Source: Alphaproteobacteria bacterium
GTDB taxonomy: Bacteria > Pseudomonadota > Alphaproteobacteria > SHVV01
Assembly: GCA_965261735.1 (NCBI GenBank)
Contig: OZ253470.1
Coordinates: 2,848,001-2,912,000, forward strand
Direction of reading: 5' to 3'
DNA: 64,000 bases
Shown: positions 3,000 to 55,627 of the stretch, piece after piece
Layout of the letters: every line of letters starts with the position of its first letter
Numbering within the stretch: the stretch's first letter is position 1
The notes under the pieces: model-generated
The model's input: only the letters and a program-made list of their open reading frames with translations
Told to the model about the DNA's origin: nothing
The model's database searches: none
Translations under genes and position numbers: made by a program

Positions 3000-5900
3000 T
3001 CAGCCGACGATCAGGCCGCGAACGTGACGGTTGGCGATGGCGAGGCGCGCAACGTCGATGCCGCCGGCGCTGCGAAAGGACGCCATCAAGTCGGCGCTGC
3101 GGGCCACCACGGCGGCATTGTCGGCCTCCCACTTGGCCAGCGCCGCGTCGCCTGCCGCGCAGTCGGCGCCATCGAAAACGCGGCTCGTGAGCGCGCGCTG
3201 CTGGCCGTAGAAGTCCTCCAGGATGGCGCTGATGGCGCGCCGTTCCCAGGGTGAATCGGGCGCCAGCTGCTCGGCTTCCGCGCGCAGCCAGTCGAGCCCG
3301 AGGCGCGCGCCGAGCGCGAAGTAGACGCGCGCCACCTCGGCGACCGAGCGGCCGCCGAGCCGCGCCACCTCGACCACGTGGCAGGCCGCCGCCAGGGTAT
3401 CGAGCCGCGCCACGCGGCGCGCGAGGTCGGCCGGCACACCCTCGCCGCGTAGCCCGGCACTGCGCTGCTCGAGACCGACCGCCTCGAATTCGCTGATGAC
3501 GCCATCGAGCACCGCGTCCACGGCCGCGATGCCGGGCGCCAGCTGCGCGATCGTGCCCGCGATGTCGAGCGGCGCGCGGCGGTTGCGCAGGTACCACTCT
3601 GTCGAGCGGTGGATGAGCTGCATGACCTCGCCGAACATGCGCACCTGCAGCGCCGCCGGGACCTTGTTGTCGAGCGCCTCGATCGCGAGCCACAGCGGGC
3701 GCAGGGCGAAGGCATCGCGCGTGAGGGTGTAGGCGCGGGCGATGTCGGCGGCCGCCGCACCGGTTTCCTCAACGAGGTCGCTGACGAATGTCGGCCCGGC
3801 ACGGTTGACGATGCTGTTGGCGACGACCGTGGCGACGATTTCGCGGCGCAGGCGATGGCCCGCCAGCGCCGGCGCGAAGCGCTTGCGCAGCGCGCGCGGA
3901 AAATACAGGGCGAGGTCGTTGGCGAAGTACGGGTCTTCGGGAACGTCGCTGGCCGTGAGCGCGTCGAACAAGGTGATCTTGCTATAGGACACGAGGACGG
4001 AGATTTCCGGGCGCGTAAGGCCGCGGCCGGCCGCCTGACGCTCGGCGACCGCCTCCTCGTCGGGTAGGAACTCTATGGCCCGGTCGAGCGCTCCGGCGCG
4101 CTCCAGGGTATGCATCAGGCGCGCCTGGGCATCGAGGCCGGCGACATCTTCGGCCTCGCACACCGAGATCGCCTGCGCCTGCAGGTAGTTGTCGCGCAGC
4201 ACCAGATCGCCGACCTCGTCGGTCATGCGCGCGAGCAGCCGGTTGCGCTGACCCGCCACCAGCGAGCGGTCGGCGATGGCGCCGTTGAGCAGGATCTTGA
4301 TGTTGACCTCGTGATCGGAGCAATCGACGCCCGCGGAGTTGTCGACGAAGTCGGTGTTGACCCGGCCCCCGCCGAGCGCGAATTCGATGCGGCCGCGCTG
4401 GGTGATGCCTAGGTTGGCGCCCTCGCCTATCACCCGGCAGCGCAACGCCCGGGCGTCGATGCGCAATCCGTCGGTGGCGCGGTCGCCGGCGTCGGCGTCG
4501 CTCTCGGCCACGGCCTTGACATAGGTCCCGATGCCGCCGAACCACAGCAAATCGACGGACGCCTTGAGGAGGGCCCGGATCAGGTCGGCCGGCGTCAGGC
4601 TGTCGGCCTCGAGATCGAAAGTGCGCTTGATCTCGGGCGAGAGCTTGATCGACGTCGCCGCTCGGTCGAACACGCCACCGCCCTTGGAGATCAGCGCGGG
4701 CTTGTAGTTGCTCCACGATGACCGCGGCAGCGCGAACAGCCGCTTGCGCTCGGCGTAGCTCTTTTTCGCATCCGGATCGGGATCGACGAAGATGTGCTGG
4801 TGGTTGAAGGCGGCGACGAGCCTGATGTGCGGCGACAGCAACATGCCGTTGCCGAACACGTCGCCCCCCATATCGCCGATGCCGACCACGCTGAACGGCG
4901 TGGTTTAGGTATCGAGCCCAAGCTCGCGGAAGTGGCGCTTGACCGATTCCCAGGCGCCGCGCGCGGTGATTCCCATCCGTTTGTGGTCGTAGCCGGCCGA
5001 CCCGCCCGAGGCGAACGCATCGCCGAGCCAGAACCCGTACGCCTGCGACACGTCGTTGGCGATGTCGGAGAACGTCGCCGTGCCCTTGTCGGCGGCGACG
5101 ACGAGGTAGGGGTCATCCTCGTCGTGGCGGACGACATCGCGGGGCGGCGCGATCGCGCCCTCGACGAGGTTGTCGGTCAGGTCGAGGAGCCCGCTCATGA
5201 ACGTGACGTAGGAGGCGATGACTTCGTTCTGGATCGCTTGCCGGTCATCGGTCGCGGGCAGGCGCTTGGTCACGAACCCGCCCTTCGAGCCGACCGGCAC
5301 GATGACCGAGTTCTTGACCATCTGCGCCTTCATCAGGCCGAGCACCTCGGTGCGGAAGTCCTCGCGCCGGTCGGACCAGCGGATGCCGCCGCGCGCGATC
5401 CTGCCAGCGAAGGATACGGTCCTCGTCGAGGTTCGCGACGGCCTCGAGTTGGGCGTCGATAGCGACGAGCAATCGGCTCGCGCGGCGCCCCGAGGTTTGG
5501 GCCTGGGCCGGATCGAAGCGGGCGTGGAACAGCTTGACCAGATTCCGCGAGATGGCGGGATGGCCGCACAGGGTGTCCTCGAGGTAGCGCGGACTGAAGG
5601 GAATGTTGGCTTGATGCAAATACTTGGCGTAGGCCCTGAGCACGACGACGTCGCGCCACTCGAGGCCGGCCCGGAACACGAGTCCGTTGAAGCGATCGTC
5701 CTCAACCTCGCCGCGCCATATCCGCAATACCGCGTCCTCGAACTTCGCGGCGGTGGCGGCCAGGTCGGGCATCTCGCCATCCGGAGCGGCGACCTCGAAA
5801 TCATGAATCCATATTGGCGGCCGAGCGTTGCCGCGGTTAACGCGGTAGGGCCACTCGTAGAGGACCCGGAGCCCCATGTGCTCGAGCACCGGTAGCGAAT

Positions 5901-7667
5901 CCGATAGCGCCACCGGCTTCTCCGGATGGTAGATCTTGAAGCGCACCGCCCTTTCTTCGGGGTGCCGCGCCGCGTACAGGTGAACGCCGACCTCATCGAT
6001 ACCACCGAGACCTTCGATCTTGTCGATGTCGAGCACCGCGTTAGCGGCGTCGAAGACCTCGCGGTAGGCCGTGGGAAAGGCCTCGCCATAGAGCGCGGTA
6101 AGCCTCCTACCCTCGACCGCGCCGTGGCGGTCGATGAGCGCGTCTTCCAGATCCTCGCGCCATGTGCGGGCCGCGGCGACGAGTTTGGCCTCGAGCGCGG
6201 CGACATTGGGCTCGGCTGTATCGCTCGGGGTGCGCCCGATGATGAAGTGCAGGCGGGCCAAGGCGTCGTCGCCGATCTGTGTCGAGAAGGCCGAGTTGCG
6301 GCCGCGAAACGCCTCCGCCAGGATCGCCTCGAAGCGCCTGCGGAGCGCGGTCGTATGCTGCTCGCGGGGCACGAAAACGAGGCAGGAGGCAAAGCGCTTG
6401 AAGCGGTCCGAGCGGACGAACAGCCGGATGCGCGGCCGTTCGCTGAGGTGCAGGATGCCGGTCGCCGCCTCGTACAGCTCGTCCTCGGAGATCTGCAGAA
6501 GCTCGTCGCGGGGAAACGTCTCCAGGATGTGGAGCAGCGCCTTACCGGCATGGCTCGTGGCGCCGAGACGCGAGCGTTCGACCACGTGCCGCACCTTACG
6601 CCGCAAGACCGGAATACTGGACGGGCTCATGCTGTACGCGGTCGAGGTGAACAGGCCGATGAAGCGGTGCTCGCCTATCGCGCGGCCCTGGGCGTCGAGG
6701 CTCTTCACGCCGACGTAATCCATGTGGACCGCCCGGTGTACCGTGCTGCGCACGCTCGTCTTGGTGATGTGAAGCAGCGCCGGCTGCTTTAGGAAGTGGC
6801 GAATCTCCGGCGGCAGGTCGGTAAGACGGCGGGGGGGGGGTCCGAGGACGTGCACCCGGGGATCACGTAGCAGGCCCTTGCCGGAGTCCTTGACCGGCGC
6901 GAACAGGGCCTCGCGCCCGTGGTCGCGCAGATCGAATTCGCGATAGCCGAGAAGCGTGAAGTTGTCGTCCTTCATCCACGCGAGGAAGGCCTTGGCCTCG
7001 GCCATCTCGGCGGCGTCGATCATGGGGGGGGGCCAGACTCGAGGGTCGCGATGGCGTCGTCGAGCTCGCCCAGCATGGGCCGCCAATCCGCGACCACCGC
7101 GCGTACATTGGCGAGCGACTTGTCGAGGTCCGCAACCAGAGACTCGCGCGCCTCGGGCGCCGCCTGATGGTCGATGCCGATATGCATCCATGACTCTTGT
7201 ATCGACGAATCGCTGCCGGCCGAGGGCGCCGGTGCGGCACGCAGGAGCTTGATCTTGCCCTGAGCGGCCCTCTCGACTAGCAGGACCGGATGAACGACAA
7301 AATGCGTGGCGACGCCGGCCCGCGCCACGGCCATGGTCACCGAGTCGACGAGGAACGGCATGTCGTCGTGGATGATCTCGACGATCGTGTGCGATGAGGA
7401 CCACCCGTCGATCCGTGGGTCCGGATCGTAGGCCCTGATCTTTGCCCGGCCGGGCATCCGCTTCTGGCCGAACCGCCACAGCGAACGGGCGGCGCCGTAC
7501 AGGGTTTCGCTCGACTGGCTGGCAATGTCCTCGGGTGCCACGTGCTGGCAGTACTGGCGCGCGAAGGCCTCGAACTCGCCCCCGCGGCCCTTGCCGGCCT
7601 CGCGCCGAAGGCGTCGGATAACCTCGGCGATGCGGCGCTGCTTAAGCGCTTCGGGCCTGACTACCAT
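3000..7667 (-). pseudogene. Large NAD-specific glutamate dehydrogenase (GdhB/GdhZ type), disrupted
   Basis: Motifs [74 protein letters not shown] are split over several ORFs. Frameshift at the G-run near 7024-7032, internal deletion with frameshift near 5405, in-frame TAA at 4905-4907. Confidence 0.92.
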
Positions 7668-7857
7668 GTCGATGGTTCCCGCCGCGCCGTCTCGCCGGCC
7701 CTAGCGATCCCGCCGGGAACGGGCGGGCTCCGGCACAGGGCGCTGCGTGTCGACACCGCCCGAAGGCGCGCAGCGCGATGTTGGGCGGTCCGTCAACCCC
7801 GTTCGCGCGGAAGGGCTGCGGCGGGCGCCAAGCGCCCTAGCCACTCACGCCGAGGGC

Positions 7858-9210
7858 TCACACCACGCCATACGCGATCATGGCATCGGCAACCTTGATG
7901 AAACCGGCGACATTGGCGCCCTTGAGGTAGTTGATATAGCCGTCCGGCTCCTTGCCGTACTCGAGGCAGCTCCCGTGGATGCCGCTCATGATGTCGCGCA
8001 GCAGCTTTTGCAGCTCTTCCTCCTTCCACGAGATGCGGGCGCTGTTCTGGCTCATCTCCAGACCCGACACGGCGACGCCGCCGGCGTTGGCCGCCTTGCT
8101 CGGGGCGAACAGGATCTTGGCATCGATGAAGGCATGGATGCCGTCCTGCTCCGTCGGCATGTTGGCGCCCTCGGAGATCCCCTTGCACCCGTTGGCGAGC
8201 AGAACCTTGGCGTCATCGGCGCTGATTTCGTTCTGGGTGGCGCACGGAAAGGCGAGGTCGCAGGCGACGTGCCACGGGCGCAGGCCCTCGTGGAACTCGA
8301 CGCCGAACTCCTCGGCATATTCCTGGATGCGGCCGCGGCGCTTGGTCTTCAGGTCTATGATCCAGGCCACCTTTTCGTCAGTGATTCCGTCGGGGTCATG
8401 GATGAAGCCGGACGAGTCGGACATGGTCAGCACCTTGCCGCCGAGTTGGTTGATCTTCTGCGCCGCGTAGGTGGCGACGTTGCCCGACCCCGAGACGAGG
8501 CACTTCTTGCCCTCGAAGCCATCGCCCGCGGTCTTCAGCATGTCTTCCATGAAGTAGACGGCGCCGTAGCCGGTGGCCTCGGTGCGGATCAGGCTGCCGC
8601 CGAACTCCAGCCCCTTGCCGGTAAGGACGCCGGTGAAGCGGTTGGTCAGGCGCTTGTATTGGCCGAACATGTAACCGATCTCGCGCGCGCCGACGCCGAT
8701 GTCGCCGGCCGGGACGTCGGTGTCCTCGCCGACGTGGCGATACAGCTCGGTCATGAAGGATTGACAGAACCGCATGACCTCGTTGTTCGACTTACCCCTC
8801 GGGTTGAAATCCGAACCGCCCTTGCCGCCGCCCATCGGCAGCCCGGTCAGGCTGTTCTTGAAGGTCTGCTCGAAGGCGAGAAACTTGAGGATGCTGAGCG
8901 TGACGCTGGGGTGGAAGCGGATGCCGCCCTTATAGGGGCCGATCGAGTTGTTGTTCTGGATGCGATAGCCGCGGTTGACGCGGATATTGCCGTTGTCATC
9001 CTCCCAGCAGACGCGAAAGATCACGATCCGGTCGGGCTCGGCGATGCGCCGCACGATCTGCATTTCATGGTAGATCGGCTTGTCGGCAATGTAGGGGAAG
9101 ATGTTCGATGCAACCTCGTACACCGCCTGGTGAAACTCGGTTTCTCCCGGGTTGCGCCTCTTGAGTCCGGCCATGAATTGATCGATGTCCACATGATCGG
9201 AAACAGCCAT
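7858..9210 (-). CDS. gdhA: NADP-specific (hexameric, small-type) glutamate dehydrogenase
   Basis: GPYKGGIRFHPSV, GGGKGGSDF, DVPAGDIGVG, RTEATGYG, SGSGNVA, KAANAGGVAVSGLEM. Confidence 0.96.
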   Translation of the reverse strand: MAVSDHVDIDQFMAGLKRRNPGETEFHQAVYEVASNIFPYIADKPIYHEMQIVRRIAEPDRIVIFRVCWEDDNGNIRVNRGYRIQNNNSIGPYKGGIRFHPSVTLSILKFLAFEQTFKNSLTGLPMGGGKGGSDFNPRGKSNNEVMRFCQSFMTELYRHVGEDTDVPAGDIGVGAREIGYMFGQYKRLTNRFTGVLTGKGLEFGGSLIRTEATGYGAVYFMEDMLKTAGDGFEGKKCLVSGSGNVATYAAQKINQLGGKVLTMSDSSGFIHDPDGITDEKVAWIIDLKTKRRGRIQEYAEEFGVEFHEGLRPWHVACDLAFPCATQNEISADDAKVLLANGCKGISEGANMPTEQDGIHAFIDAKILFAPSKAANAGGVAVSGLEMSQNSARISWKEEELQKLLRDIMSGIHGSCLEYGKEPDGYINYLKGANVAGFIKVADAMIAYGVV

Positions 9211-9412
9211 AATGAGTTCTCCCTTGCTCAGTTGATAATGGGGCGCCGCCGGGTGCGAGGCCGCTCGCCGTCATACCCCCCGTGGGTCAACGGCTTATTG
9301 GTGAAGCGAACGTTTGCCGCGGGCCAGGTCGCCACGGCGGCGCCGAGTGTAACAGGATTGCGAGGCCGAACGCGGCGGGATTACAACCGTGCTTTGGGGG
9401 TGAAAACGAGCC

Positions 9413-18900: not shown

Positions 18901-19944
18901 TTACGCGAACTCGGGGACGATTTCCTTGGCGACCCTGTCGATCACCGTCATGCGGTCGAAGCCGGGGCCGCCGACGTAGAACACCCAGTTGTGGAGCCCT
19001 TGGCCCGCGAGCTCGGCGAGGCGCGCGTTGATGTCCGCCGCGGTCCCCCACAGGCGCGGCGAGCGCTCGATCAGCCAGTCGTGGAGGCCGAGCTTCTTGG
19101 CCCGCTCCACCAGCGCTCGCCCGCGCCCCGGCGTCTTGTAGCTGTTCGTCAGGTCGTGGGTATCGGCGTTGAGCTCGAGCAGCGCCTCCTTGTACTCGTC
19201 CGGGATTCCCTTGCCCTCGAGGCTGCCCATGGTGAGCCATTGGGCGCCCCAGCCGAAGGTCGACTCCATGGCCGCCGCGGGGCTCTCGGCAAAGGTCACG
19301 CTGGCGTTCCACCACACGTCGAGGTCGCTGGCTGCGCGCCCAGCGGCGGCCGCGCCCTCGGCGATGATGCGCTGGACGCCCTCGATATCGGCCGGCGCAA
19401 AGCCCATGGTGACAAGCATCCCATCGGCGACCTCGGCGGCCATGCGCAGCACCTTGGGGCCCGAGCAGGCGACGTAGATCGGCACTTCCACCGGTGGCGA
19501 CCACGCGCTCCACTCGGCCTTGAACGTCGTGCCGCGCCAGGTCGCGGCCTCGCCGCGTAGCAGAGCCTTCACCGCCAGGATGTAGTTGCGCAGGGTCTCC
19601 ACCCTGGCCGACTTCAAGCCGACGCCCCAGATGGCGCTGTCCCCGGTGGCGATGCCGCAGGCGATGCGACCCGGCGCGAGCTCGTTGAGCGACATCAGCG
19701 CCGCCGCGGTGACCGAGGGGTGCCGGGTGAGCGGATTGGTGACCGAGGTGAGGACTTGGATGCGCGAGGTGCTCAGCGCGCACAGCGTCGCCGAGACGTA
19801 GAGCTCGCGCAGCAGCGCCGGCGAATCGGGCACACCAACCATCTTGAGGCCGCCGGCATCGCACGCCTGCCACCACTTCGCGACCTCCATCAGCGGCTCC
19901 TGCTGTGTGAAGTTCAGGCAGAACTGGATCTTGGGATTGGCCAT
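18901..19944 (-). CDS. LLM-class (luciferase-like) flavin-dependent oxidoreductase, paralog 1
   Basis: VPDS, VTNPLTRHPSVTA, GIATGDSA, PIYVACSGPKVLRMAAEVADG; start MANPK. Confidence 0.92.
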   Translation of the reverse strand: MANPKIQFCLNFTQQEPLMEVAKWWQACDAGGLKMVGVPDSPALLRELYVSATLCALSTSRIQVLTSVTNPLTRHPSVTAAALMSLNELAPGRIACGIATGDSAIWGVGLKSARVETLRNYILAVKALLRGEAATWRGTTFKAEWSAWSPPVEVPIYVACSGPKVLRMAAEVADGMLVTMGFAPADIEGVQRIIAEGAAAAGRAASDLDVWWNASVTFAESPAAAMESTFGWGAQWLTMGSLEGKGIPDEYKEALLELNADTHDLTNSYKTPGRGRALVERAKKLGLHDWLIERSPRLWGTAADINARLAELAGQGLHNWVFYVGGPGFDRMTVIDRVAKEIVPEFA

Positions 19945-20188
19945 TCTCACCCCCGGGAGGACATTGGCGCCGCTCGCGCCAGCGCGTGCGACCATTATCA
20001 CACCCTGGCCGCGCTATGCGAAGGCGGGTGCGCGTCTCGTGGCGTTGTCCGTCGCTGGCGCTGCAAATCGGTTGCGTTTGGCGCTCCGAGACCGCAGGAT
20101 TAGTATGGGAGCGTTGGCGGCGCGGGCCACACGGGGCATCGCGGCGCGATCGGCGGCAAAGTACAAGAACCGAAGGGAGATTTAACCA

Positions 20189-21235
20189 ATGTCACTTTTT
20201 TCCACAATTCGCTGGCGCTGGCTTGGCGCCGCGGCTCTATTTGCGGCCGTCGGGGGCCTGCTCGCGGTGCCTACCGCGAATGCCCAGGCCACCTACGAGG
20301 CCGCCAAGAAGGAAGGCAAAGTCGTCTTCTATTCGGGCCAGCCGATCGAGCTACTCCAGAATCTGAAAGACGATTTCCAGAGCACGTATCCGGGCATCGA
20401 CGTCGACTTCTTCCGCGGCGACACTCGGCAGTACGCCCAGCGTTTCGAGACCGAATCGCAGACCGGGCGCCACAACGTCGACGTGATGCTGTCGACGTCG
20501 GTGACGACGCCGAAATGGGTGGCGAAGGACTTGCTGGCACCCTACGTTTCGCCGATGCAGGCGAACTATCCGGCCGAGCTCAGGGACGCCAACGGCTACA
20601 ACAATCCCTACGCGGTCAACATGACGAGCTTCGCCTGGAACACCGATCTCGTGAAGCCCGGCGAGGAGCCCAAGACCTGGGACGACCTGCTCGATCCCAA
20701 GTGGAAGGGCAAGATCGCCATTCAGGACCCGTTGGGGCGCGGCGGCGCCTTCACCTGGACGGTCACGATGCGCCGCGAACTCGGCGAAGCGAAGTGGCTC
20801 GACTACATGAAGAAGCTCGCCGCTCAGGAGCCCAAATATGGGCGCTACATGCAGGTGCGCGAGATGGTCATGTCGGGCGAGGTCGCGATTCACGTCGCCG
20901 CCTATCCCGATTTCACCGAGCCCGTGAAGGTCAAGGGTGCTCCCGTCGACTGGGGCGTGCCGGAGTGGCTCGTGTTCGTGGGTCTGACGGTTAGCCTGTC
21001 GGCCAACGCGCCGCACCCCGAAGCGGGCAAGCTGTTCATCGACTACATGATGTCGGATTCGGCGCAGACGATCCTCGGCGAGTCGGGGCGCATCCCCGCC
21101 AAGCCAGGGCTGCGCGGCGGTGCCTACGCCAAGCTCAAGAACGCCAAGATCGTGACCTCGGGTATACCCTCCCAGGTCGTGTCCGACGAGTACTTCAAAG
21201 AAAACTTGCGGATGATTTTCGGCAAGAAACAGTAA
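20189..21235 (+). CDS. ABC transporter substrate-binding protein (Fe3+/thiamine-like family), orphan
   Basis: Signal peptide ending ANA-Q; AAKKEGKVVFYS, PKTWDDLLDPKWKGKI, APHPEAGKLFIDY. Confidence 0.9.
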   Translation: MSLFSTIRWRWLGAAALFAAVGGLLAVPTANAQATYEAAKKEGKVVFYSGQPIELLQNLKDDFQSTYPGIDVDFFRGDTRQYAQRFETESQTGRHNVDVMLSTSVTTPKWVAKDLLAPYVSPMQANYPAELRDANGYNNPYAVNMTSFAWNTDLVKPGEEPKTWDDLLDPKWKGKIAIQDPLGRGGAFTWTVTMRRELGEAKWLDYMKKLAAQEPKYGRYMQVREMVMSGEVAIHVAAYPDFTEPVKVKGAPVDWGVPEWLVFVGLTVSLSANAPHPEAGKLFIDYMMSDSAQTILGESGRIPAKPGLRGGAYAKLKNAKIVTSGIPSQVVSDEYFKENLRMIFGKKQ

Positions 21236-21296
21236 GTATCGTGTCGGGATCGGCGGCCGGGGTACCGGCCGCCGATTCGACTCCAAGGGGCTAGCA

Positions 21297-22148
21297 ATGT
21301 CGGACGCGGCACCCTCCGCGGCGCGCAAGAACACGCCACCCCAGATATCCGTGCGCCGACTGAACCGGGCGCTCGGCGCCGAGATCCGCGGCCTCGACCT
21401 GTCGCAACCGCTCGATGACGCGGTGTTTGTCGAGGTGCTGCAGGCCTTCCATGACAATTTGGTGCTGGTCTTTCCCGACCAGAACCTCTCGCCGAGCCAG
21501 CAGATCGCGTTCACCAACCGCTTCGGTTACTGCGGACCCAATCCCGACCTCACCCGCAAGACCCTCGACACGTTCCCCGAGGTGCGCACCCTCGTCAACC
21601 GCCCCGGCGATCCCGGACCGGCCAACGATTTCTGGCATTCGGACGTGACCTATTTCGAGGAGCCGATCCTGGGTTCGGTGCTCCATGCCCTCGAGGTGCC
21701 CGACCCCGGCGGCGACACCTGCTTTTGCAACATGTACAACGGCTACGAGCAGCTCTCGCCAGGCCTCAGGCGCATGCTCGATGGCTTGCGCGCGGTCCAC
21801 AGCGCGCGCGCCAACTTCCTTAATTCGGGCCGCCCGCTCGAGGAGATGCCACCGCCCGTCGAACATCCGGTGATCCGGACCCACCCGGCGACGGGCCGCA
21901 AATCGCTGTACGTCGAGTGGCACTTCACCGAACACTTCGCCGGCATGACCAGGGAAGAGAGCAAGCCCATCATCGACCATGTGGTCGCGCGCGCGGTCGA
22001 GCCCGAGAATGTCTATCGCCATCGCTGGAGCGTCGGCGACGTCGTCATCTGGGACAATCGCTGCACCTTGCACCGTAGCGTCTACGACTACGGCGACCGG
22101 CCCCGCGTCATCCACCGCACCACCGCCGCCGGCGACAAGCCCTACTAG
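21297..22148 (+). CDS. TauD/TfdA family 2-oxoglutarate/Fe(II) dioxygenase
   Basis: LGAEIRGLDL, WHSD (HxD), GGDT, HPVIRTHP, IWDNRCTLHR. Confidence 0.95.
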   Translation: MSDAAPSAARKNTPPQISVRRLNRALGAEIRGLDLSQPLDDAVFVEVLQAFHDNLVLVFPDQNLSPSQQIAFTNRFGYCGPNPDLTRKTLDTFPEVRTLVNRPGDPGPANDFWHSDVTYFEEPILGSVLHALEVPDPGGDTCFCNMYNGYEQLSPGLRRMLDGLRAVHSARANFLNSGRPLEEMPPPVEHPVIRTHPATGRKSLYVEWHFTEHFAGMTREESKPIIDHVVARAVEPENVYRHRWSVGDVVIWDNRCTLHRSVYDYGDRPRVIHRTTAAGDKPY

Positions 22149-22175: not shown

Positions 22176-23348
22176 CTAGGCCTCGCCGAACAGGCGCGCG
22201 AGGTAGTCGTTGACGTAGTTGTAGACGAGCAGCTCGTTCGACGACATGCGACCCGGGGCGAAGCCCTGCGACGTCATGGCCCGCTGCAGGGACGTGATCA
22301 TCGGCCGGTCCTGCTCCAGGATCTTGACGATCCGGTCCATGAAGGGCTCGGTCCGCTCCCAAAAGCCGGGCCACTCGAAGAATTCCGCCGGGAAGGTCAT
22401 GTACTGGACGATCTCGGTCCTGTTGGGCGCGACCGGCCACACCAGGATCTGAGAGATGCGGTCGCTGGCGATGAAGATCGACATGTTGGGCGAGAGGAAC
22501 CCAGCGCCGTAGAAGCCCGGGCCGCGCTCGCGCAGCCAGTCCTCGAGCCACGGTAGCGCCCCGAAAGGGGGATCGGTGTCGGCACTGCCGAGATTGGCAT
22601 CGAAGAAGGCGCTGTAGCCGCCGTTTCGTGCCCGCTTGTACGGATAGTCCCGGGCGTCCGGCCAGTCGGGCAGGGTGTCGGCGTGGAGCGTCTGGATATG
22701 GTAGAGGTCGACGAAGTTCTCGTTGACGAGCTTCCAGTTGCACTCCAGCACGCACGACGCCTTGCGGGCGAGGCGGCAGCGACCCTGCCGGAAGAAACCG
22801 AAATCGGCGTCGAACTCGGCGACGAAATCGGCGAGCGGTGCCGCGTGCTCATCGAAGTTCACGAACACCCAGCCCTCCCAGACGCCGAGCCGGAGCGGGC
22901 GCAGGCGGCAGTCGCCCGCGTCGAAGCCCTTGACGTCGTCCATGTAGGCCGCGCCCAGGAGCTTGCCCGATAAGTCGTAGGTCCAGGCGTGGTAGGGGCA
23001 CTGGAAGTGCTTGAGGTTGCCCTCGCCGGCGGCGACCTCGACGCCGCGGTGGGCGCACACGTTGTAGAAGGCGTTGAGCTCGCCGTCGTGGTTCCGCGCA
23101 ACGACGATAGGCTCGCCCATGATGTTGAAGGTCATGTAGTCGCCGGGCTTCTCGACCTCCTCGGCGCGGGCCACGGCGAGCCAGTCCTTCATAAAGATCT
23201 TCTGCTTCTCGAGCGCGAGGACCTCGGGCGAGGTGTAGATGTAGGCTGGCAGGTGGTGCGCCTCGTCGAGCGGCCGCCGCGTCTCCTCGAGCCCGAGTGC
23301 CGAAGCGCCGACAGCCTGGTGCCGCGCCCGTGCGTCCGCAACAGTCAT
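22176..23348 (-). CDS. Rieske non-heme iron oxygenase alpha subunit (choline monooxygenase-like group)
   Basis: CAHRG..CPYHAW Rieske motif; NWKLVNENFVDLYHIQTLH mononuclear iron site. Confidence 0.93.
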   Translation of the reverse strand: MTVADARARHQAVGASALGLEETRRPLDEAHHLPAYIYTSPEVLALEKQKIFMKDWLAVARAEEVEKPGDYMTFNIMGEPIVVARNHDGELNAFYNVCAHRGVEVAAGEGNLKHFQCPYHAWTYDLSGKLLGAAYMDDVKGFDAGDCRLRPLRLGVWEGWVFVNFDEHAAPLADFVAEFDADFGFFRQGRCRLARKASCVLECNWKLVNENFVDLYHIQTLHADTLPDWPDARDYPYKRARNGGYSAFFDANLGSADTDPPFGALPWLEDWLRERGPGFYGAGFLSPNMSIFIASDRISQILVWPVAPNRTEIVQYMTFPAEFFEWPGFWERTEPFMDRIVKILEQDRPMITSLQRAMTSQGFAPGRMSSNELLVYNYVNDYLARLFGEA

Positions 23349-23509
23349 GATCGCTCGCTCCTCCGCCGGGTGACGCCGCACCATAGCGGCTCCCGCTGCC
23401 GCCGTTCAACGACCGGCGCGCCTTGACCCGGCGAAGAGGCCGGGGCTAGGGTTTTCGCCCAGCCTTGTGTGAAGTCGAGGCGGGCGGTGGCGACGGGAAG
23501 GGGACGACC

Positions 23510-24871
23510 ATGCGGGTACGCTGCGGCAAGCTGTTCACCGGCCTCGAGGACGAGGCCAGGTCCGATCAGACGCTCCTCATCGACGACGGCCGTATCACCT
23601 TCGTGGGGCCGAGCGCGGACGCGCCGGCCAATGGCGAGGAGGCTCTCGATCTCTCGAACGCCTTCGTGATTCCGGGACTGATCGATGCCCACACCCACTT
23701 GGCCTTCGGCAACGCCCAGGGCCTCGAGGACGTCGACCTCTATTCGGCGCTCGAATTCCGCGCGCTCCGCGGGCTCATCAACGCGCAGCGCGTACTGACG
23801 ACGGGGCATACGGCTTTCATCGATCCCGGCTCCTCGGGCCGCGTCTCGCTGTCGGTGCGCGATGCCATCGATGCGGGCCTGTTTACGGGGCCGCGCATCG
23901 CCTGCTCGGGGCCGTTCATCGGCAACCGGCAGGGCTTCACCTCCTTCTACCCGACCTGGTTCACCAACCCGACGGCGGTGTGCGATCTGGTTAAAAGCAC
24001 CGACGAGGCAGTCGAGACGATCCGCCGCCAGGTCAAGGACGGGGTCGACTTCATCAAGATAGCGCTCGACGGCCGGGTCATGAACGGCGACGGCGAGCTC
24101 TCGGCCGCCTTCGACGAGGCCACCATTAAGCGGCTGATCGACGAGTGCCACCGCTTGGGGCGCAAGGTCATTGGGCACGCACGCGGCCGCGAAGCCGCGC
24201 TCTTTGGTGCGCGCTCGGGCACCGACGTCCTCTATCACGTCTCGTGGATCGGCGACGACGTGATAGAGGCGGCGCTCAAGAGCGGCTCCTATTTCTGTCC
24301 CTCGATGACGATCACCCACAACCGCTTCAGCTTCGCGCAGTCGAGCGATCCGGCCACGCGCAAGGGCGACTTCGGCGCCTCCGAATGGGCGGCCTCGACG
24401 ATGTGGGCGCGGCGCGCCTATGAAGCCGGGGTACCCCTCATGGCCGGCACCGATTCGGGCTTCGCCTCGGACCCGTGCGGCGAGTGGCACGCGCGCGAGA
24501 TGGAGATCCTGGTCAAGTACATCGGCCTCACCCCGGCGCAGGCGCTACGAGCCGCGACCTCGGTCAACGCCACCTTCTTCGGTGACGCGGACGGCGCGGG
24601 CGCCGATTTCGGGGCGCTCGAGGCGGGCCGCCTCGCCGACTTCGTGGTCGTCGACGGCGATCCGCTCGAGGACATCTCGATCTTGCTCGACAAGTCGGCA
24701 ATCCGCGCGGTTTACCTCGCGGGCGAGCGCGTGGAGGTATCGCCGCCGCCGATCCACGCCGAGGCCGAGACCGCCTTCTCCTACCGCTTCTGGCAGGACA
24801 CCTACGACCAGAAACGCGTCGCCGAGCTGCGCGGCGACGGCGGAGCGGAGTCCCACATCCGGGCGATCTGA
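23510..24871 (+). CDS. Metal-dependent amidohydrolase (Xaa-Pro dipeptidase-like)
   Basis: PGLIDAHTH, GVDFIKI, GHARG, AGTDSG, GRLADFVVVDGDPLEDI. Confidence 0.92.
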   Translation: MRVRCGKLFTGLEDEARSDQTLLIDDGRITFVGPSADAPANGEEALDLSNAFVIPGLIDAHTHLAFGNAQGLEDVDLYSALEFRALRGLINAQRVLTTGHTAFIDPGSSGRVSLSVRDAIDAGLFTGPRIACSGPFIGNRQGFTSFYPTWFTNPTAVCDLVKSTDEAVETIRRQVKDGVDFIKIALDGRVMNGDGELSAAFDEATIKRLIDECHRLGRKVIGHARGREAALFGARSGTDVLYHVSWIGDDVIEAALKSGSYFCPSMTITHNRFSFAQSSDPATRKGDFGASEWAASTMWARRAYEAGVPLMAGTDSGFASDPCGEWHAREMEILVKYIGLTPAQALRAATSVNATFFGDADGAGADFGALEAGRLADFVVVDGDPLEDISILLDKSAIRAVYLAGERVEVSPPPIHAEAETAFSYRFWQDTYDQKRVAELRGDGGAESHIRAI

Positions 24872-24877
24872 GAGGGC

Positions 24878-25330
24878 CTAGCCGAGGCTCCTCAGGTCGG
24901 CGAGCACCTCGTCGGGGTGGTCGGCGGGTTTGACGGTTGCGTAGGCCTTGGCGATCTTGCCGTCGGGGGCGATGAGTACGGAGACGCGGGTCGGGACCCG
25001 CGAGTCGGCCTCGGCGGCGCCGTAGGCGATCGAGGTCGCCTTCGTCTCGTCGCTCAGCAGATCGAAGGGGAAGCTGGACTTCTCGCGGAACGCCTTGTTG
25101 GCCCCGGTCGTATCGAAGCTGATCCCGAGTACGGCGGTATTGAGTCCTTCGAAGTCCTGGATTCGATCACGGAATCCCTTGCCCTCGATGGTTCACCCAG
25201 GTGTGTCGGCCTTGGGGTACCACCACAGGAGCACGTAGCGGCCGGAGAAGTCGTCCGACTTCACCGCTGCCCCATCCTGATTGCTGAGCTCGAAGCTCGG
25301 CGCTCGTTGGCCCACGTCGATCAGCGCCAT
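24878..25330 (-). CDS. bcp: BCP/PrxQ peroxiredoxin with in-frame UGA at the peroxidatic position (probable selenoprotein), 150 aa
   Basis: Hand translation: MALIDVGQRAPSFELSNQDG...WWYPKADTPG-TGA(25195-25193)-TIEGKGFRD...VLGISFD...FPFDLLSD...PTRVSVLIAPDGKI...HPDEVL. Absent from the ORF track. Confidence 0.9.
25159..25177 (-). promoter_or_regulatory. Candidate bacterial SECIS hairpin
   Basis: GGATTC-CGTGATC-GAATCC begins 15 nt after the UGA and has G near the start of the apical loop. Confidence 0.7.
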
Positions 25331-25468
25331 GCCATCCCCCTTTTGCGCCCCTTATGTGACCCTCGACTATAGCACATAGCGGCGAGGTGTCCGATGGAAC
25401 GCGGCTCGCCGGCCACGCTATGATGCCTCCCCGGACCAGCGCCCAGGCGTTCGAGCCAGGAGGCGAAC

Positions 25469-26263
25469 ATGGCCAAGAACATACTGCTTCATTTTAGCGG
25501 CGAGGATCGCCACGAAATCAAAACGGACATGGCGATCCGGATGGCGAACATCTTCGACGCCGGCATCACCGGCCTCTACGCTAGCGAGGTCTGGCACCGC
25601 GGCGGGGCGCGCCCTCGCGAAGGCGATATCGGGGGCGACGAGGCCAAGGCCGGGCGCGTCAAGGCTGCTTTCCTCGGCGCGACCGAGGCGCGCGGCGTGG
25701 CGGCGGAGTGGCTGATGCGCGGCGGCGATGCCCGCGCCTCCATACTCTTCCTGTCGTGCTTCGCCGACCTGATCGTCATGGGCCAGTCCGGGCCCGAGGA
25801 ATCCGATCAGGCACCGGACCTGCCCAACGACGTCGCAATGGCCGCCGGGCGCCCCGTGCTCGTCGTTCCGCACTCGGGCACGTTCGAGCAGGTCGGTACG
25901 CGTGTCATGGTCGCCTGGAACAACAGCCGCGTCGCGAGCCGCGCCATGCATGACGCCATGCCGATCCTCGAGCAGGCGGCCGAGGTCGTGGTGCTCAGCG
26001 TCAACGCCAAGCAGACGGATCAGCCGACGAGCGAGGATGTGCGCGAGCACCTGGCCGGGCGCGGCATCAACGCCGAGGCCGTGAGCACCGCCGTCCAAGA
26101 GGTCAGCACCGGCAACGCCCTACTGTCGCGGGCCCACGATCTCGGCGTCGATCTCGTCGTCATGGGCGCGTATGGCGGCTCGCGAATTCGCGAGACCCTG
26201 GTCGGCGGCACCACGCGCCACGTGCTCGAGACCATGACGCGCCCGGTCCTGCTGTCGCACTGA
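25469..26263 (+). CDS. Universal stress protein (tandem USP domains)
   Basis: ADLIVMGQ, GRPVLVVP, VAWNNSR, DLVVMGAYGGSRIRE..VGGTTR, PVLLSH. Confidence 0.93.
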   Translation: MAKNILLHFSGEDRHEIKTDMAIRMANIFDAGITGLYASEVWHRGGARPREGDIGGDEAKAGRVKAAFLGATEARGVAAEWLMRGGDARASILFLSCFADLIVMGQSGPEESDQAPDLPNDVAMAAGRPVLVVPHSGTFEQVGTRVMVAWNNSRVASRAMHDAMPILEQAAEVVVLSVNAKQTDQPTSEDVREHLAGRGINAEAVSTAVQEVSTGNALLSRAHDLGVDLVVMGAYGGSRIRETLVGGTTRHVLETMTRPVLLSH

Positions 26264-27549: not shown

Positions 27550-27792
27550 CGGTGATCCTTTCTCGTTTTGTGGCTCGCTTGCCGCCCGTTGACTAGGAGT
27601 GTATATACATCTAATATTCCCGCCTTCAAGTCGCGACGAGAAGTATTGCGGCGACGCGCGGCAGGGGCGCCGGCGCTTTTCGGCCGGGTGCCTATCGATC
27701 CGACCGACGAGCGTGGCGCCTCCTCGGTTGAAGGGCGGTGCGGCGGCAACTATGCTCGACCACGGGCATGACGTTGGCTTCCAAGGGGGGTC

Positions 27793-28836
27793 GTGATGGC
27801 GGGTCCGAAGATGCGCTTCTGCATGAACGGCGGCACGCTCAGGCAGCCCGTACCGGCGGAGGTTCCGCTGTGGCAGGCCTATGATGCCGCCGGAATCGAC
27901 ATCGGCATGCCCGATTCCTCGCGCCAGTACCGCGAGCTTTACGTCGCCACCACGGTGTGCGTGCTCAACACAGAGCGGGTGCGCGTTTTCCCGAGCGTTA
28001 CCAACCCGGTCACCCGGCACCCCTCGGTAACCGCTGCCGCCATGCTCTCGCTCCACGAGCTCGCGCCGGGGCGCATCGGGCTCGGCATCGCGACGGGCGA
28101 TTCGGCGCTCTGGAGCGTGGGGCTGAAGCCGGCGCGGGTCGCTTACTTGCGCGACTACATCGTGGCCGTGAAGTCGTTGCTGCTCGGCGAGGAGGCCCAT
28201 TGGCAGGGCCAGACCTTCCGCGCCGAATGGAGCGCCTGGGCGCCGCCGGTGGACATCCCGGTGTTCGTCGCGTGCGCGGGGCCGAAGGTCCTGCGCATGG
28301 CGGCCGAGGTCGCCGACGGCGTGATCGCGGCCATCGGCTTCTCGCCCGAGGACATCGAGGACGTGCACACAATCGTGGGCGAGGGCCTCGCCGCCTCGGG
28401 CCGCAAGCCGGAGGACTTCGAGGTGTGGTGGACCGCGGACATCACCTTCGCGGGGAGTGTCGAGGAGGCCGCGGCGCAGAGCCTCGGCTGGGGCACGAGC
28501 TGGCTTACGATCAGCACCCTCGAGGGCAAGCGCATTCCCGCGGACTTGCGCGAGCGCGTCAAGGAGATGAATGCCGATGCCCATGTCCTGGCCAAGTCCT
28601 ATAAGACGCCGGGGCGCAACCGCCTGATCGTCGAGCGCGCCAAGGAGCTCGGGCTCTACGACTGGCTGATCTCGCGCTCGCCACGCCTATGGGGCACGCC
28701 AGCCGACGTGGTTGGGCGCTTCGAGGACCTCGCCGGCCAGGGCATCGCGAACTGGGTCATCCACGGCGGCCGCATCGAGGACAAGGCCGCCCACCTCGAC
28801 CTCCTGACGCGCGAAGTCATGCCCCGTTTCGCCTAG
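27793..28836 (+). CDS. LLM-class flavin-dependent oxidoreductase, paralog 2
   Basis: VTNPVTRHPSVTAAA, GIATGDSA, GPKVLRMAAEVADG. Confidence 0.92.
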   Translation: MMAGPKMRFCMNGGTLRQPVPAEVPLWQAYDAAGIDIGMPDSSRQYRELYVATTVCVLNTERVRVFPSVTNPVTRHPSVTAAAMLSLHELAPGRIGLGIATGDSALWSVGLKPARVAYLRDYIVAVKSLLLGEEAHWQGQTFRAEWSAWAPPVDIPVFVACAGPKVLRMAAEVADGVIAAIGFSPEDIEDVHTIVGEGLAASGRKPEDFEVWWTADITFAGSVEEAAAQSLGWGTSWLTISTLEGKRIPADLRERVKEMNADAHVLAKSYKTPGRNRLIVERAKELGLYDWLISRSPRLWGTPADVVGRFEDLAGQGIANWVIHGGRIEDKAAHLDLLTREVMPRFA

Positions 28837-33407: not shown

Positions 33408-34448
33408 TCAGGCGAAGTGCGGCATCACCTCGCGCGACAAGGTGTTGAGATGGCCGACCTTGTCCTCGAGCCGGCCGCCATAGAAAACCCAGTTCCGTAG
33501 GCCGAGCTCGGCGAGTTTTTCGAGTCGATCGATCACGTTTCCGGGCGGGCCCCAGAGCTGCGGCGAGCGCTCGATCAGCCAATCGTGGAGGCCGAGCTTC
33601 TTGGCGCGCTCGACGAGGAGCCGATTGCGCCCCGCCGTCTTGTAAGCGGTGGCCAAGTTGTGCGAATCGGCGTTCAGCTCCTTGAGCAGCGGCTTGTAGT
33701 CCTCGGGAATGCGCTTGCCCTCGAGGCTACCCATGGTCAGCCAATTCGTCCCCCAGCCGATGCTTTCCGCCATCGCCTCCTCGACGGTCGCGGCGAAAGT
33801 CACGTCGGCGTTCCACCACACGGCGAAGTCGCCCGCCTCGCGCGCGGCCGCAGCCGAACCGGCCGCGACGATGGCGTGAACGTCGGCGATGTCCTCAGGC
33901 GCAAAGCCCATGGTGACCACGGCGCCGTCGGCGACTTCGGCCGCCATCCTCAGTACCTTGGGGCCCGAACAGGCGACGTACACCGGTATCTCCAATGGCG
34001 GCGACCAGGCGCTCCACTCGGCGCGGAAGGTGTGCCCCTGCCACTCGGCCTCCTCACCGCGCAGCAGCGCCTTCACGGCCAGGATGTAGGCACGCAAGTG
34101 TGCCACCGTCGCGGTCTTCAGGCCGACGCTCCACAGCGCCGAATCACCGGTGGCGATGCCGAGCCCGATGCGCCCCGGCGCAAGCTCGTGGAGCGAGAGC
34201 ATGGCGGCCGCGGTCACCGAGGGGTGACGGGTGACGGGGTTGGTGACGCACGGGAAGACGCGCACGCGCGAGGTGTTGAGCGCGCATACCGTGAGCGCGA
34301 CGTAGAGCTCACGGAATTGGCGCGGCGAATCCGACATGCCGATATCGATCCCGGCCGCGTCGTACCCGCGCCACAGCGGCACGACCTCCGCGAGCGGCTG
34401 CTTGAGCGTGCCGCCGTTCATGCAGAAGCGCATTCGTGGTACAGCCAT
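33408..34448 (-). CDS. LLM-class flavin-dependent oxidoreductase, paralog 3
   Basis: Same motifs as paralogs 1 and 2; start overlaps the DUF427 stop (TAATG). Confidence 0.92.
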   Translation of the reverse strand: MAVPRMRFCMNGGTLKQPLAEVVPLWRGYDAAGIDIGMSDSPRQFRELYVALTVCALNTSRVRVFPCVTNPVTRHPSVTAAAMLSLHELAPGRIGLGIATGDSALWSVGLKTATVAHLRAYILAVKALLRGEEAEWQGHTFRAEWSAWSPPLEIPVYVACSGPKVLRMAAEVADGAVVTMGFAPEDIADVHAIVAAGSAAAAREAGDFAVWWNADVTFAATVEEAMAESIGWGTNWLTMGSLEGKRIPEDYKPLLKELNADSHNLATAYKTAGRNRLLVERAKKLGLHDWLIERSPQLWGPPGNVIDRLEKLAELGLRNWVFYGGRLEDKVGHLNTLSREVMPHFA

Positions 34449-34999
34449 TAGGGCGCCTTTTCGAGCCGGACGGGCGCCCCCGCGTCATCGCGGACGAGCT
34501 GCCAGCGATAGTGGGTCGCATAGCGCTGGACGTCGTAGACCTGCCACGCTTGCTCCAACTCGGATTCGGGAATTTCGCTGTTCTCGGTCACGTCGGCGGG
34601 CGTGAGCACCGTTTTCGGGGTCTTCGACAGGAGCCAGCACAACGCCTCCCATCCGGTCAGTCCGTCGCGCACGCTCGGGCTCTTTTCCACGAGCCCCGCA
34701 CCCTCGGCCGCATCGACGATCTCGACGCCGGACCAGAACGCAACGCGGTCCTTGATGATCGCGGCCTGGGCGTAAGGGTCCGGATAGAACCAGGCCGCGC
34801 CGCCGTTTTCCGCGCCATCGACGAGGACGTCGTAGTACTCGGAATAGCCCTTCCAGTGGCAGTAGGTTGGCTTCACCGACTCGCTCTTGCGGAAATGCTC
34901 CCAGCGCACGCCGTCGGCCGGAAAATAGGCGTTGCCCTCGACGAGCGCGATGTCGTCGCTCTCGGCGATGGTGGCACCGTTCCAGATGGCTTTGGTCAT
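34448..34999 (-). CDS. DUF427 (NTP_transf_9) protein with C-terminal extension
   Basis: KAIWNGATIAESDD, VEGNAYFP, CHWKG, AAWFYPDP, IKDRVAFW, then about 85 extra residues. Confidence 0.88.
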   Translation of the reverse strand: MTKAIWNGATIAESDDIALVEGNAYFPADGVRWEHFRKSESVKPTYCHWKGYSEYYDVLVDGAENGGAAWFYPDPYAQAAIIKDRVAFWSGVEIVDAAEGAGLVEKSPSVRDGLTGWEALCWLLSKTPKTVLTPADVTENSEIPESELEQAWQVYDVQRYATHYRWQLVRDDAGAPVRLEKAP

Positions 35000-40471: not shown

Positions 40472-41905
40472 GGTCGTGTCCCAGGACGTGGTGTAGGAGT
40501 TGTTGGAGCCTCTGTTAGCTGTGGGTAGGCGGCTTGCCGTAGCGACCGCCGAGAGTCTGGCGTAGGCAAGCCGGCTATCCACAGCGGAGGCCATCGCGGT
40601 TCCGGTTTAGGGTTGGGCTAGTGCAAACCAACCTGACCCGAAGGAGAACCACGATGACCCAGGACATGATGACCCTACGCGCGCTTTTGGAGAAGAGCTC
40701 CGATGCCGATCTGCTTTGCGAGATGATCGGCTTCACGGCCGAGCGGCTGATGGCACTGGAGGTTGAGGGCCTGACCGGCGCCGGGCACGGCGAGCGCTCG
40801 GCGGATCGTATCACCCATCGCAACGGCTACCGCGACCGGTCCTGGGAGACGCGGGCCGGCACGGTCGAGCTGAAGATCCCGAAGCTGAGGAAGGGAAGCT
40901 ACTTCCCGGGCTTCCTGGAGCCGCGGCGGATGGCCGAGAAGGCGCTGGCTGCGGTGATCCAGGAGGCCTACATCCAGGGGGTGTCGACCCGCTCGGTCGA
41001 CGATCTGGTTCAGGCGATGGGGATGTCGGGCGCCTCCAAGAGCCAGGTCTCCAGGCTGTGCGGCGAGATCGACGATAAGGTCAACGGCTTCCTCGATCGA
41101 CCGCTGGAGGGCGACTGGCCCTATCTGTGGCTCGACGCCACCTACGTGAAGGTGCGCCAGACCGGACGCATCGTCTCGGTCGCGGTGACCGTGGCTGTGG
41201 CCGTCAACGACCAAGGCCGCCGCGAGGTCCTGGGCGTGGCGATCGGCGCGTCGGAGGCCGAGACCTTCTGGACCGAGTTCCTGCGCTCGCTGGCCCGGCG
41301 CGGGCTGCGCGGCGTGAAGCTGGTGATCTCCGACGACCACAAGGGCCTGAAGGCCGCCGCGACCCGGATCCTCGGCGCCACATGGCAGCGCTGCCGCGTG
41401 CACTTCGCCCGCAACCTGCTGGCCCATGCCGGCCGCCAGGGCCGGCGCGTCGTCTCCGCCTTCGCCCAGGAGGACGCCGACAGCGCGAAGGTCCAGTGGC
41501 GCCAGGTCGCCGACCAGCTCAGGCCCAAGGTGCCCAAGCTGGCAGTTCTCATGGACGAAGCCGAGCACGACGTCCTCGCCTACATGAGCTTCCCCAGGGA
41601 GCACCGCCAGAAATTGCACTCCACAAACCCGATCGAACGGCTCCATGCCGAGGTCAAGCGTCGCACCAACGTCGTCGGTATCTTTCCCAACGAAGCCGCC
41701 ATCACACGGCTCGTCGGCGCCATCCTTCTCGAGCAGAACGACGAGTGGGCCGTCTCAAGGAGATACATGACGCTGGAATCCATCGCTCCGCTGAGCGATG
41801 GTGTCCCCATCACGCTGCCCACCGTGGCAGCCTGAACGTCCCGGCCCTACCCGCCGGGAGCCGCGTAGAGCGCAACGCTCTTACACCACTCCGCGGGACA
41901 CGATC
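40472..41905 (+). mobile_element. IS256-family insertion sequence
   Basis: Imperfect terminal IRs GGTCGTGTCCCAGGACGTGGTGTA / TACACCACTCCGCGGGACACGATC; no matching target duplication seen. Confidence 0.9.
40654..41835 (+). CDS. IS256-family transposase
   Basis: [54 protein letters not shown]. Confidence 0.95.
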
Positions 41906-44052: not shown

Positions 44053-44341
44053 GGCAACCGGGCGAGCGAGGCGGCCGAGGTACCGGCCGCGCTGTCGCGG
44101 CGTTGTAGACCAGCGCGGCGCGCGCGGCAAACGCGCGGGCCGCGGCACGCTCGCGCGTTTGCCCCTCGCGTGCGCGCTATTCGGCCGGCGGAAGTTGGGC
44201 TAAGGTGGCCGGCGCCCACCTCCGTCCGAGAAACCCGCCCGAGCCTTGGCCCGCGGTCCCGGCGTATCGTTTTCATGATTCGCCGCTGCCGGAGGGGTGG
44301 GCTGGCGATGATCCGCGGGTCCACGGGGGATACACGAAACC

Positions 44342-45280: not shown

Positions 45281-45317
45281 GCGCGCCGAGACCCACGCCC
45301 AGCGCACGCCGGCGCCG

Positions 45318-46223: not shown

Positions 46224-46231
46224 ACGCGCGC

Positions 46232-49202: not shown

Positions 49203-49342
49203 GTCTATCGCTCCGGGTTACGCCCGCTAGTATATATCGGCCGCGTCGTGGTGTGGCGCGGGTCGACCGCGGTTGACCGGGCGCGCGTGCCCGGGCAACA
49301 ATTCGAGCGCATCTGCGACTTGCAAGGAAGAAGGGAGACGAG

Positions 49343-49633
49343 ATGTCGGTATTCGTCATTGCACACGTCACCGTGAGCGATCCGTCGTGGATCGAGGACT
49401 ACACTCCCGCGGTACAGGCCCAGGTCGAATCCCACGGCGGCCGCTATTTGGCGCGCGCCACCGAGATCGAGCATATCGAAGGCTCCGGGGCGGTGCCGAG
49501 CGCTGCGGTCATCATGGAGTTTCCCGACGCCGAGCGTGCCAAGGCTTGGTACGCCTCGCCCGAGTACCAACCCTATCTCAAAGCGCGACAGGCCGGCGCC
49601 ACGGCGGACTTCCTCCTGGTCGACGCCCTCTAG
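49343..49633 (+). CDS. DUF1330 family protein
   Basis: HGGRYLAR, IMEFPD, AWYASPEYQ. Confidence 0.92.
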   Translation: MSVFVIAHVTVSDPSWIEDYTPAVQAQVESHGGRYLARATEIEHIEGSGAVPSAAVIMEFPDAERAKAWYASPEYQPYLKARQAGATADFLLVDAL

Positions 49634-49665
49634 CGCGGGGCGGGCGCAAATATCAGGAGCGAACA

Positions 49666-50814: not shown

Positions 50815-50902
50815 CGCTCGTCGCCGCGGCGGCGTAAGGCTGGTATAGTGATGACGGCGGGCGGTGCGCGGCGCTGCCTTGCACGAATCCCGGAGGCAGG
50901 CG

Positions 50903-55468: not shown

Positions 55469-55627
55469 CAACTCAGATCGTGTCCGACGCTCGCGTTCAC
55501 GACCCGGACCTGCTCGATGCCCTGGAGGCGCTGGAGCCTCAACCGATGGGATGGACGCCCCTCCCGACGGCATCGCGATGTGCCAGGTTGGCGGTGTTGT
55601 TAACGCCAAGCGAGGAAGGGGGCGTCC

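Follow-up and report, generated by a model that had tools for sequence, protein, structure and literature searches.

An in-frame UGA in a peroxiredoxin gene

The 64,000-nucleotide stretch of alphaproteobacterial DNA analysed here (the window) contains a minus-strand frame in which a TGA codon stands where a peroxiredoxin has its peroxidatic cysteine. This raises the question of whether the codon terminates a short peptide or is read as selenocysteine (Sec, U) in a full-length enzyme. As detailed below, comparison with related genes makes the second reading very probable, with a functional peroxiredoxin of the BCP/PrxQ subfamily as the product.

The coding sequence, as delineated by its frame, by Pfam and by solved structures, comprises 150 codons (24878..25330, minus strand) and extends from an ATG at 25330-25328 to a TAG at 24880-24878. 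Codon 46 (25193..25195, minus strand) is its sole in-frame TGA; it occupies the peroxidatic position of a P39-x-x-x-T43-x-x-U46 motif, in the context WWYPKADTPG-U-TIEGKGF. The table-11 listing of open reading frames holds only the N-terminal piece of 45 residues (25193..25330), without a long ORF call for the C-terminal part, and the gene is thus hidden from ordinary ORF finding. The original prediction, made from the sequence alone, was that a minus-strand frame of 150 codons had been missed by the ORF track and that its UGA falls exactly on the catalytic Cys of the PxxxTxxC motif. The frame is indeed present, and codon 46 aligns with the peroxidatic Cys of BCP/PrxQ structures. GC3 amounts to 0.83 on both sides of the TGA, and the window copy contains no further stop or frameshift and has kept all its catalytic residues.

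The gene is flanked by a convergent amidohydrolase gene (23465..24871, plus strand) and a divergent universal-stress-protein gene (25469..26263, plus strand). A putative Shine-Dalgarno-like GGGGGA, read from the sequence, lies 4 nt 5' of the ATG (25335..25340, minus strand). It is preceded by a match to the sigma-70 promoter consensus (CGGACA-16-TATAGT with a TG; 25366..25393, minus strand), 35 nt upstream of the ATG; one such site was found, against 0.1 expected in shuffled sequences, and it is a match to the consensus only. About 40 nt past the stop codon we noted a weak, GC-rich, terminator-like hairpin (24817..24839, minus strand), which falls within the convergent amidohydrolase gene, at its 3' end; the region contains two terminator-like sites against 0.5 expected. 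With a promoter-like site and a ribosome-binding site to itself, the peroxiredoxin gene looks monocistronic.

Wider content of the window

Elsewhere in the window, a gene for NAD-specific glutamate dehydrogenase (about 1,567 codons; 3000-7700, minus strand) is broken. ACT1 (7700-7020) lies in a first frame and HM1/ACT2/HM2/ACT3/HM3 in another (ORF 5248-7641), while the catalytic domain returns to the first frame and an in-frame TAA is found at 4907-4905. With its two frameshifts and one nonsense codon, this is either a pseudogene or the result of assembly errors, which indicates that decay or assembly error does occur in this sequence. The adjoining gene, for an ELFV-type glutamate dehydrogenase (7861-9270, minus strand), is intact.

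The Mutator and IS110 families are each represented by one transposase gene, at 40543-41832 and 55604-56647, both on the plus strand. The window also encodes at least five paralogues of the alpha-subunit of Rieske ring-hydroxylating oxygenases (22179-23405, 48060-52066 and 59049-61186), three luciferase-like monooxygenases (18904-20013, 27772-28833 and 33411-34484) and a TauD-family dioxygenase (21216-22145); this apparent wealth of oxygenases would serve to scavenge organic compounds. Three ORFs for EamA-family transporters stand in tandem (44312-48057, plus strand), the stop-to-stop frames of the first two overlapping (44312-45277 and 45141-46220).

The UGA is conserved among relatives

A scan of genome contigs, with one genome per species, yielded 271 relatives of the gene, of which the best 80 were used; the 81-sequence set referred to below consists of the window gene and these best 80 of 271 relatives. 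The 80 share 61-81% identity, have a gene GC content of 0.41-0.69 and all come from metagenome-assembled genomes, whose labels are in most cases Alphaproteobacteria, Rhodospirillales or Rhodospirillaceae. The original prediction had called for a check of this codon in homologues, and held that TGC or TGT in all close homologues would point to a nonsense mutation or a base-call error. We found TGA at the equivalent codon in all of these best 80 loci, in the context WWYPKADT(P/R)G-U-T.EG.GF, and Cys in more distant forms. Furthermore, residues were conserved on both sides of the TGA while third positions were free to vary (mean entropy of 1.45 bits outside the hairpin described below). This indicates that the 45 codons upstream and the 104 codons downstream are translated as one protein under purifying selection.

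Searching protein databases returned 120 matches, 115 of which contain the motif. At the Sec column, 78 of these 115 homologues have Trp and 37 have Cys. The Trp is accounted for by gene callers that read TGA as Trp on short contigs. As a result, 78 database proteins (among P0003-P0107) bear a wrong residue at their catalytic site. Three of the five matches lacking the motif (P0109, P0111 and P0114) are fragments that start just past the TGA. The 37 Cys forms are mostly more distant and contain two to five cysteines each. Three of them (P0002, P0077 and P0116) retain the hairpin-encoded residues R-D-R-I-Q (or R-D-R-I-R), and would fit recent Sec-to-Cys conversions as judged from these residues.

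No neighbour family, be it a reductant partner or a SelW-like gene, was found in more than 20 loci of the 81-sequence set, and the peroxiredoxin gene therefore behaves as a free-standing gene; the ORF-based method used for neighbours would overlook small genes that contain Sec, SelW-like ones among them. The neighbour families that were annotated comprise MFS, HbpS-like, formyltransferase, ABC-F, RmuC, deformylase and TruA. In 13 of the best 80 loci (L030, L031, L043, L055, L064, L066, L067, L069, L072, L074, L078, L079 and L080), a tRNA-Ala gene (anticodon CGC) is present downstream of the peroxiredoxin orthologue on the opposite strand. It lies within about 100-500 nt of the orthologue in five of them (L066, L072, L074, L079 and L080) and marks a syntenic subgroup.

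A BCP-like fold without a resolving cysteine

The protein obtained by reading through the UGA matched the Pfam family AhpC-TSA (PF00578) with an E-value of 5e-32, over profile positions 1-123 of 124. Its top NCBIfam matches were BCP thiol peroxidase (PRK09437; 108.7 bits for a cut-off of 140) and PrxQ (97.3 bits for a cut-off of 260). As both scores are below the equivalog cut-offs, the protein belongs to a BCP-like clade of its own and is an equivalog neither of E. coli Bcp nor of Deinococcus PrxQ. When solved structures were searched with phmmer, the best match was 3drn (E-value of 3e-21), followed by 5enu and 5iph, residues 4-148 being aligned. In these alignments U46 coincided with the peroxidatic Cys/Ser of the three structures and R115 with their conserved Arg. 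An AlphaFold model built from a 74-sequence alignment had a pLDDT of 97 and a pTM of 0.91, and its top structural matches were BCP/PrxQ structures, with TM scores of 0.89-0.92. In the 81-sequence set T43 is kept in 81/81 and R115 in 78/81 orthologues, and R115 is invariant in the alignment behind the model. The claim that homology continues to the C-terminus and includes the catalytic Arg was therefore substantiated by an end-to-end AhpC-TSA match and by the alignment of R115.

We then considered how the oxidised enzyme might be resolved. In BCP-type enzymes, the resolving Cys is located at +5 or about +36 from the peroxidatic Cys, as the C84S label of 5iph also suggests. In the window protein these places are occupied by K51 (+5) and R82 (+36), and its 150-codon translation is, as had been noticed at the outset, devoid of any Cys. 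Among the orthologues (81-sequence set, window gene plus best 80 of 271), 44 of 81 are Cys-free and 37 of 81 have a single Cys, at scattered sites of which none is shared by more than 12 sequences. Because a second Cys is not conserved, the family would consist of 1-Sec peroxiredoxins lacking a resolving residue, a conclusion that had been part of the original prediction and that holds at the level of sequence.

A SECIS-like hairpin follows the UGA

The prediction also placed a hairpin 15 nt downstream of the UGA. The hairpin GGAUUC-CGUGAUC-GAAUCC, with a stem of 6 bp, does begin exactly 15 nt past this codon; it is perfect in the window, where its third pair is A-U. Comparative alignment and the bSECIS model delineate a bacterial SECIS-like element within the coding sequence (25149..25188, minus strand). 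It comprises a lower helix (25188-25183 with 25154-25149), an upper helix (25177-25172 with 25164-25159) and an apical loop CGUGAUC (25171-25165), all on the minus strand.

Folded by itself, the hairpin of the window did not exceed shuffles in stability (z = -0.27; 73 of 200 shuffles folded equally well). As the single-sequence fold is not significant, we relied on comparative evidence instead. The 81-sequence set (window gene plus best 80 of 271 relatives) could be aligned without gaps over 69 nt from the TGA, and columns 19-38 of this alignment are almost invariant. Pairing of the upper helix (columns 19-24 with 32-37) holds in 81/81 sequences, i.e. in 100% of the cells, and only one of its pairs varies, being either G.U or A-U. 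In the lower helix (columns 8-13 with 42-47), 89.9% of the cells are paired and two pairs show compensatory UA<->CG changes. RNAalifold recovered the same hairpin. The covariation score was 0.129 compared to 0.116 in shuffles, a value that 1 of 500 shuffles reached; pairs with double changes numbered two, a count attained by 301 of 500 shuffles. The near-invariance of the helix thus leaves little room for classical covariation, which is weak.

The constraint on this segment was more apparent at synonymous sites. Third-position entropy fell to 0.30 bits at codons +6 to +12 after the UGA, compared to 1.45 bits elsewhere, the lowest value of any 7-codon window in the gene. CGT, which is one of six Arg codons, TTC and ATC were each used in 81/81 sequences, despite a gene GC content ranging from 0.41 to 0.69. 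Moreover, the residues R-I-Q encoded by the 3' arm at +10 to +12 (R56-I57-Q58 in the window protein) are found in 78, 75 and 76, respectively, of the 78 TGA forms. By contrast, the same positions vary in the 37 Cys forms (R8/Q8/L7, Y8/I6/A6 and A10/E9/P4). Being invariant in the TGA forms and variable in the Cys forms, R-I-Q therefore reflects a constraint on the RNA and not on the protein.

We compared the element with the bSECIS model as summarized in PMC13188914. According to the legend of Fig. 2 in that review, the apical loop has 3-9 nt and the upper stem 4-16 bp; the model further has a G in the first two loop positions, a spacing of 16-37 nt from the UGA and a minimum free energy of -7.5 kcal/mol or lower. 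The element in the window has a loop of 7 nt, an upper stem of 6 bp, a G at loop position 2 followed by U, a spacing of 21 nt and a minimum free energy of -14.2 kcal/mol (45 nt after the UGA). In the 81-sequence set, the energy limit is satisfied by 76 sequences, and the upper helix forms in the minimum-free-energy fold of 79. The predicted SECIS-like nature of the hairpin is thus in keeping with the published constraints. An Rfam scan of the 64-kb window gave no match at gathering thresholds, and hence no catalogued RNA family covers the hairpin.

UGA as a stop codon and the Sec machinery

A global reassignment of TGA (code 4/25) is ruled out by its use as a stop. TGA ends 18 of the 33 confident ORFs of the window, where it is the commonest true stop, and 33 of the 81 peroxiredoxin orthologues (window gene plus best 80 of 271) use it as their genuine stop. 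A search of the window for genes with coding signal both before and after a TGA found none except the peroxiredoxin gene; the sole other candidate was a trivial junction between two adjacent genes in the same frame.

Genes for Sec synthesis and insertion were sought in the window and in the related loci. The tRNA scan of the 64-kb window detected no tRNA gene, hence no tRNA-Sec, and a Pfam scan of 41 window ORFs gave no SelA, SelB or SelD domain. Similarly, when the window and the 80 loci, 1.32 Mb in all, were searched by tblastn with the SelD, SelB and SelA proteins of E. coli, nothing was returned at an E-value of 1e-3 or below, which indicates that the machinery is not linked to the peroxiredoxin gene. 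A tRNA-Sec gene was found in one of the best 80 loci (L018), 2.9 kb from the peroxiredoxin orthologue (6106-6200 of that locus, minus strand; anticodon UCA). It was detected by ARAGORN and scored 79.3 bits with Rfam model RF01852, for a cut-off of 47. This tRNA-Sec gene is solitary, between a GST-like and a flavin-reductase-like gene, and no SelB-like sequence was detectable around it. This arrangement is unlike the selB-nested selC that a passage of PMC13188914 reports for some Alphaproteobacteria. From the properties of the peroxiredoxin gene, we infer that the Sec machinery is probably present in the genome from which the window derives; the tRNA-Sec gene next to the L018 orthologue lends this indirect support.

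Alternative explanations

Five independent comparative signals strongly support decoding of the UGA as Sec: the presence of TGA in 80 of the best 80 relatives, the occurrence of Cys in distant ones, the fit to the bSECIS model, the frozen synonymous sites, and 3'-arm residues that are peculiar to the TGA forms. We nevertheless considered the possibility that the gene is a relic, left in a genome that has lost its Sec machinery, and that the UGA now terminates translation to give a dead fragment of 45 residues. Neither a sel gene nor a tRNA-Sec lies within the 64-kb window, and the NAD-specific glutamate dehydrogenase gene shows that genes decay elsewhere in it. Yet, 64 kb is a small sample of a genome, and the window copy has acquired no other stop or frameshift, has kept its catalytic residues and a perfect hairpin, and displays the same GC3 (0.83) on either side of the TGA. 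We therefore regard a relic as improbable. An ordinary Cys-peroxiredoxin gene hit by a nonsense mutation or a base-call error is a hypothesis to which we attach a negligible probability. A broken gene does exist in the window and the hairpin of the single sequence is not significant, but such an accident would not recur as the same TGA in 80/80 orthologues from other species (the best 80 of 271), nor be accompanied by a synonymous freeze and a TGA-form-specific R-I-Q over the hairpin.

The UGA could also be read through without selenium, by near-cognate Trp or Cys or with the help of a local recoding signal, which would equally give a full-length protein. Consistent with this, 78 database entries show W at the Sec column, though this is the work of gene callers, and the sel machinery of the source genome is putative. 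By established peroxiredoxin chemistry, however, an enzyme with Trp in the peroxidatic position would be inactive. TGA is also the main true stop in the window and stops orthologues as well, so that there is no reassignment of the code-4 type. Against selenium-free decoding there are also a downstream element that fits the bSECIS model and the tRNA-Sec gene beside one orthologue (L018). Selenium-free read-through thus appears very unlikely, and decoding as Sec remains the reading that we adopt.

Proposed mechanism and significance

By analogy with the established bacterial Sec pathway, the hairpin would bind the SelB-GTP-Sec-tRNA(Sec) complex during translation, and this complex would compete with release factor 2 at the UGA and deliver Sec there. 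Which bSECIS elements are recognised often depends on the species. In the resulting protein, as expected from peroxiredoxin chemistry, T43 and R115 would activate the selenolate of U46 for attack on a hydroperoxide, and this attack would convert the selenolate into a selenenic acid. As the protein and its orthologues are without a conserved second Cys, an external thiol reductant (thioredoxin, glutaredoxin or glutathione) would probably reduce the oxidised enzyme directly, as happens in 1-Cys peroxiredoxins. Taken jointly, the propositions that there is an obligate 1-Sec BCP clade, that its SECIS is fixed at the nucleotide level across at least 81 species, that the RNA dictates R56-I57-Q58 and that the clade is spread through Alphaproteobacteria form a tentative picture, to which we would give slightly less than an even chance.

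Gene callers using table 11 split such a gene, call its C-terminal fragment only, or switch to a code in which TGA means Trp. With correct flagging, the proteome regains a predicted functional antioxidant enzyme. From the gene it follows that the organism would require selenium and possess the Sec machinery, a point that bears on the ecology of trace elements in the ocean. The family also illustrates neatly how, in nature, an RNA element can constrain the protein sequence overlapping it. If a 1-Sec clade is indeed spread among uncultured, mostly marine Rhodospirillales-like Alphaproteobacteria, Sec decoding would be common in this class and the peroxiredoxin gene would be a simple marker for it. 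Current understanding is unchanged, since the family has been catalogued since 2005.

Comparison with known systems

COG1225 is the COG of Bcp-type peroxiredoxins. That Sec-containing peroxiredoxins had already been reported, as stated in the original prediction, agrees with the catalogued TxxU/COG1225 family. In the portions of these papers drawn on here, the analysis of the Sargasso Sea selenoproteome (Zhang, Fomenko & Gladyshev 2005, PMC1088965) lists 43 Sec-peroxiredoxin genes, the second most abundant family, and the analysis of the GOS data (Zhang & Gladyshev 2008, PMC2398784) counts 253 selenoproteins for Prx (pfam00578, TxxU) against 7,348 Cys homologues. Passages of a 2026 review (PMC13188914) include Prx (PF00578, TxxU) among known selenoproteins and name the PxxxTxxU motif. 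According to part of a 2006 survey (PMC1794560), FdhA was the sole selenoprotein family in the Alphaproteobacteria sequenced by then. As described in those portions of PMC1088965 and PMC2398784, the marine Sec-peroxiredoxin family (COG1225/PF00578) has in common with the window gene its Pfam and COG families, the TxxU motif, a peroxidatic Sec and a bSECIS immediately downstream. On the basis of the motif, the domain and the habitat labels of the relatives, we infer that the window gene belongs to the same clade. The same portions of these two papers contain no discussion of a missing resolving Cys or of SECIS invariance at the nucleotide level, and our search of the literature for Sec enzymes of the BCP/PrxQ type gave nothing specific among the titles listed.

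The experimentally supported precedent for a Sec-peroxiredoxin, as given in a table of PMC13188914, is PrxU of Eubacterium acidaminophilum (Sohling et al. 2001). Like the window protein, PrxU (NF040737) has Sec in place of the peroxidatic Cys, but it is of another subfamily. The window protein scores 52.3 bits with the NF040737 model, for a cut-off of 270, and is thus not a PrxU orthologue; this model has 233 positions, compared to the 150 residues of the window protein.

The Cys-type BCP/PrxQ enzymes (S. solfataricus Bcp1, 3drn; X. campestris PrxQ, 5iiz and others; E. coli BCP, 9a4d_B) share with the window protein a common fold (TM scores of 0.89-0.92), the PxxxTxxC active-site motif and the conserved Arg. 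Many enzymes of this type carry a resolving Cys. They differ from the window protein in using Cys, whereas the latter would use Sec and is free of Cys. The 1-Cys peroxiredoxins, exemplified by M. tuberculosis AhpE (1xxu and 4x0x; TM score of 0.89), similarly have a single redox-active residue and no resolving Cys; in AhpE, however, this residue is Cys and not Sec, and by its sequence AhpE forms a separate subfamily.
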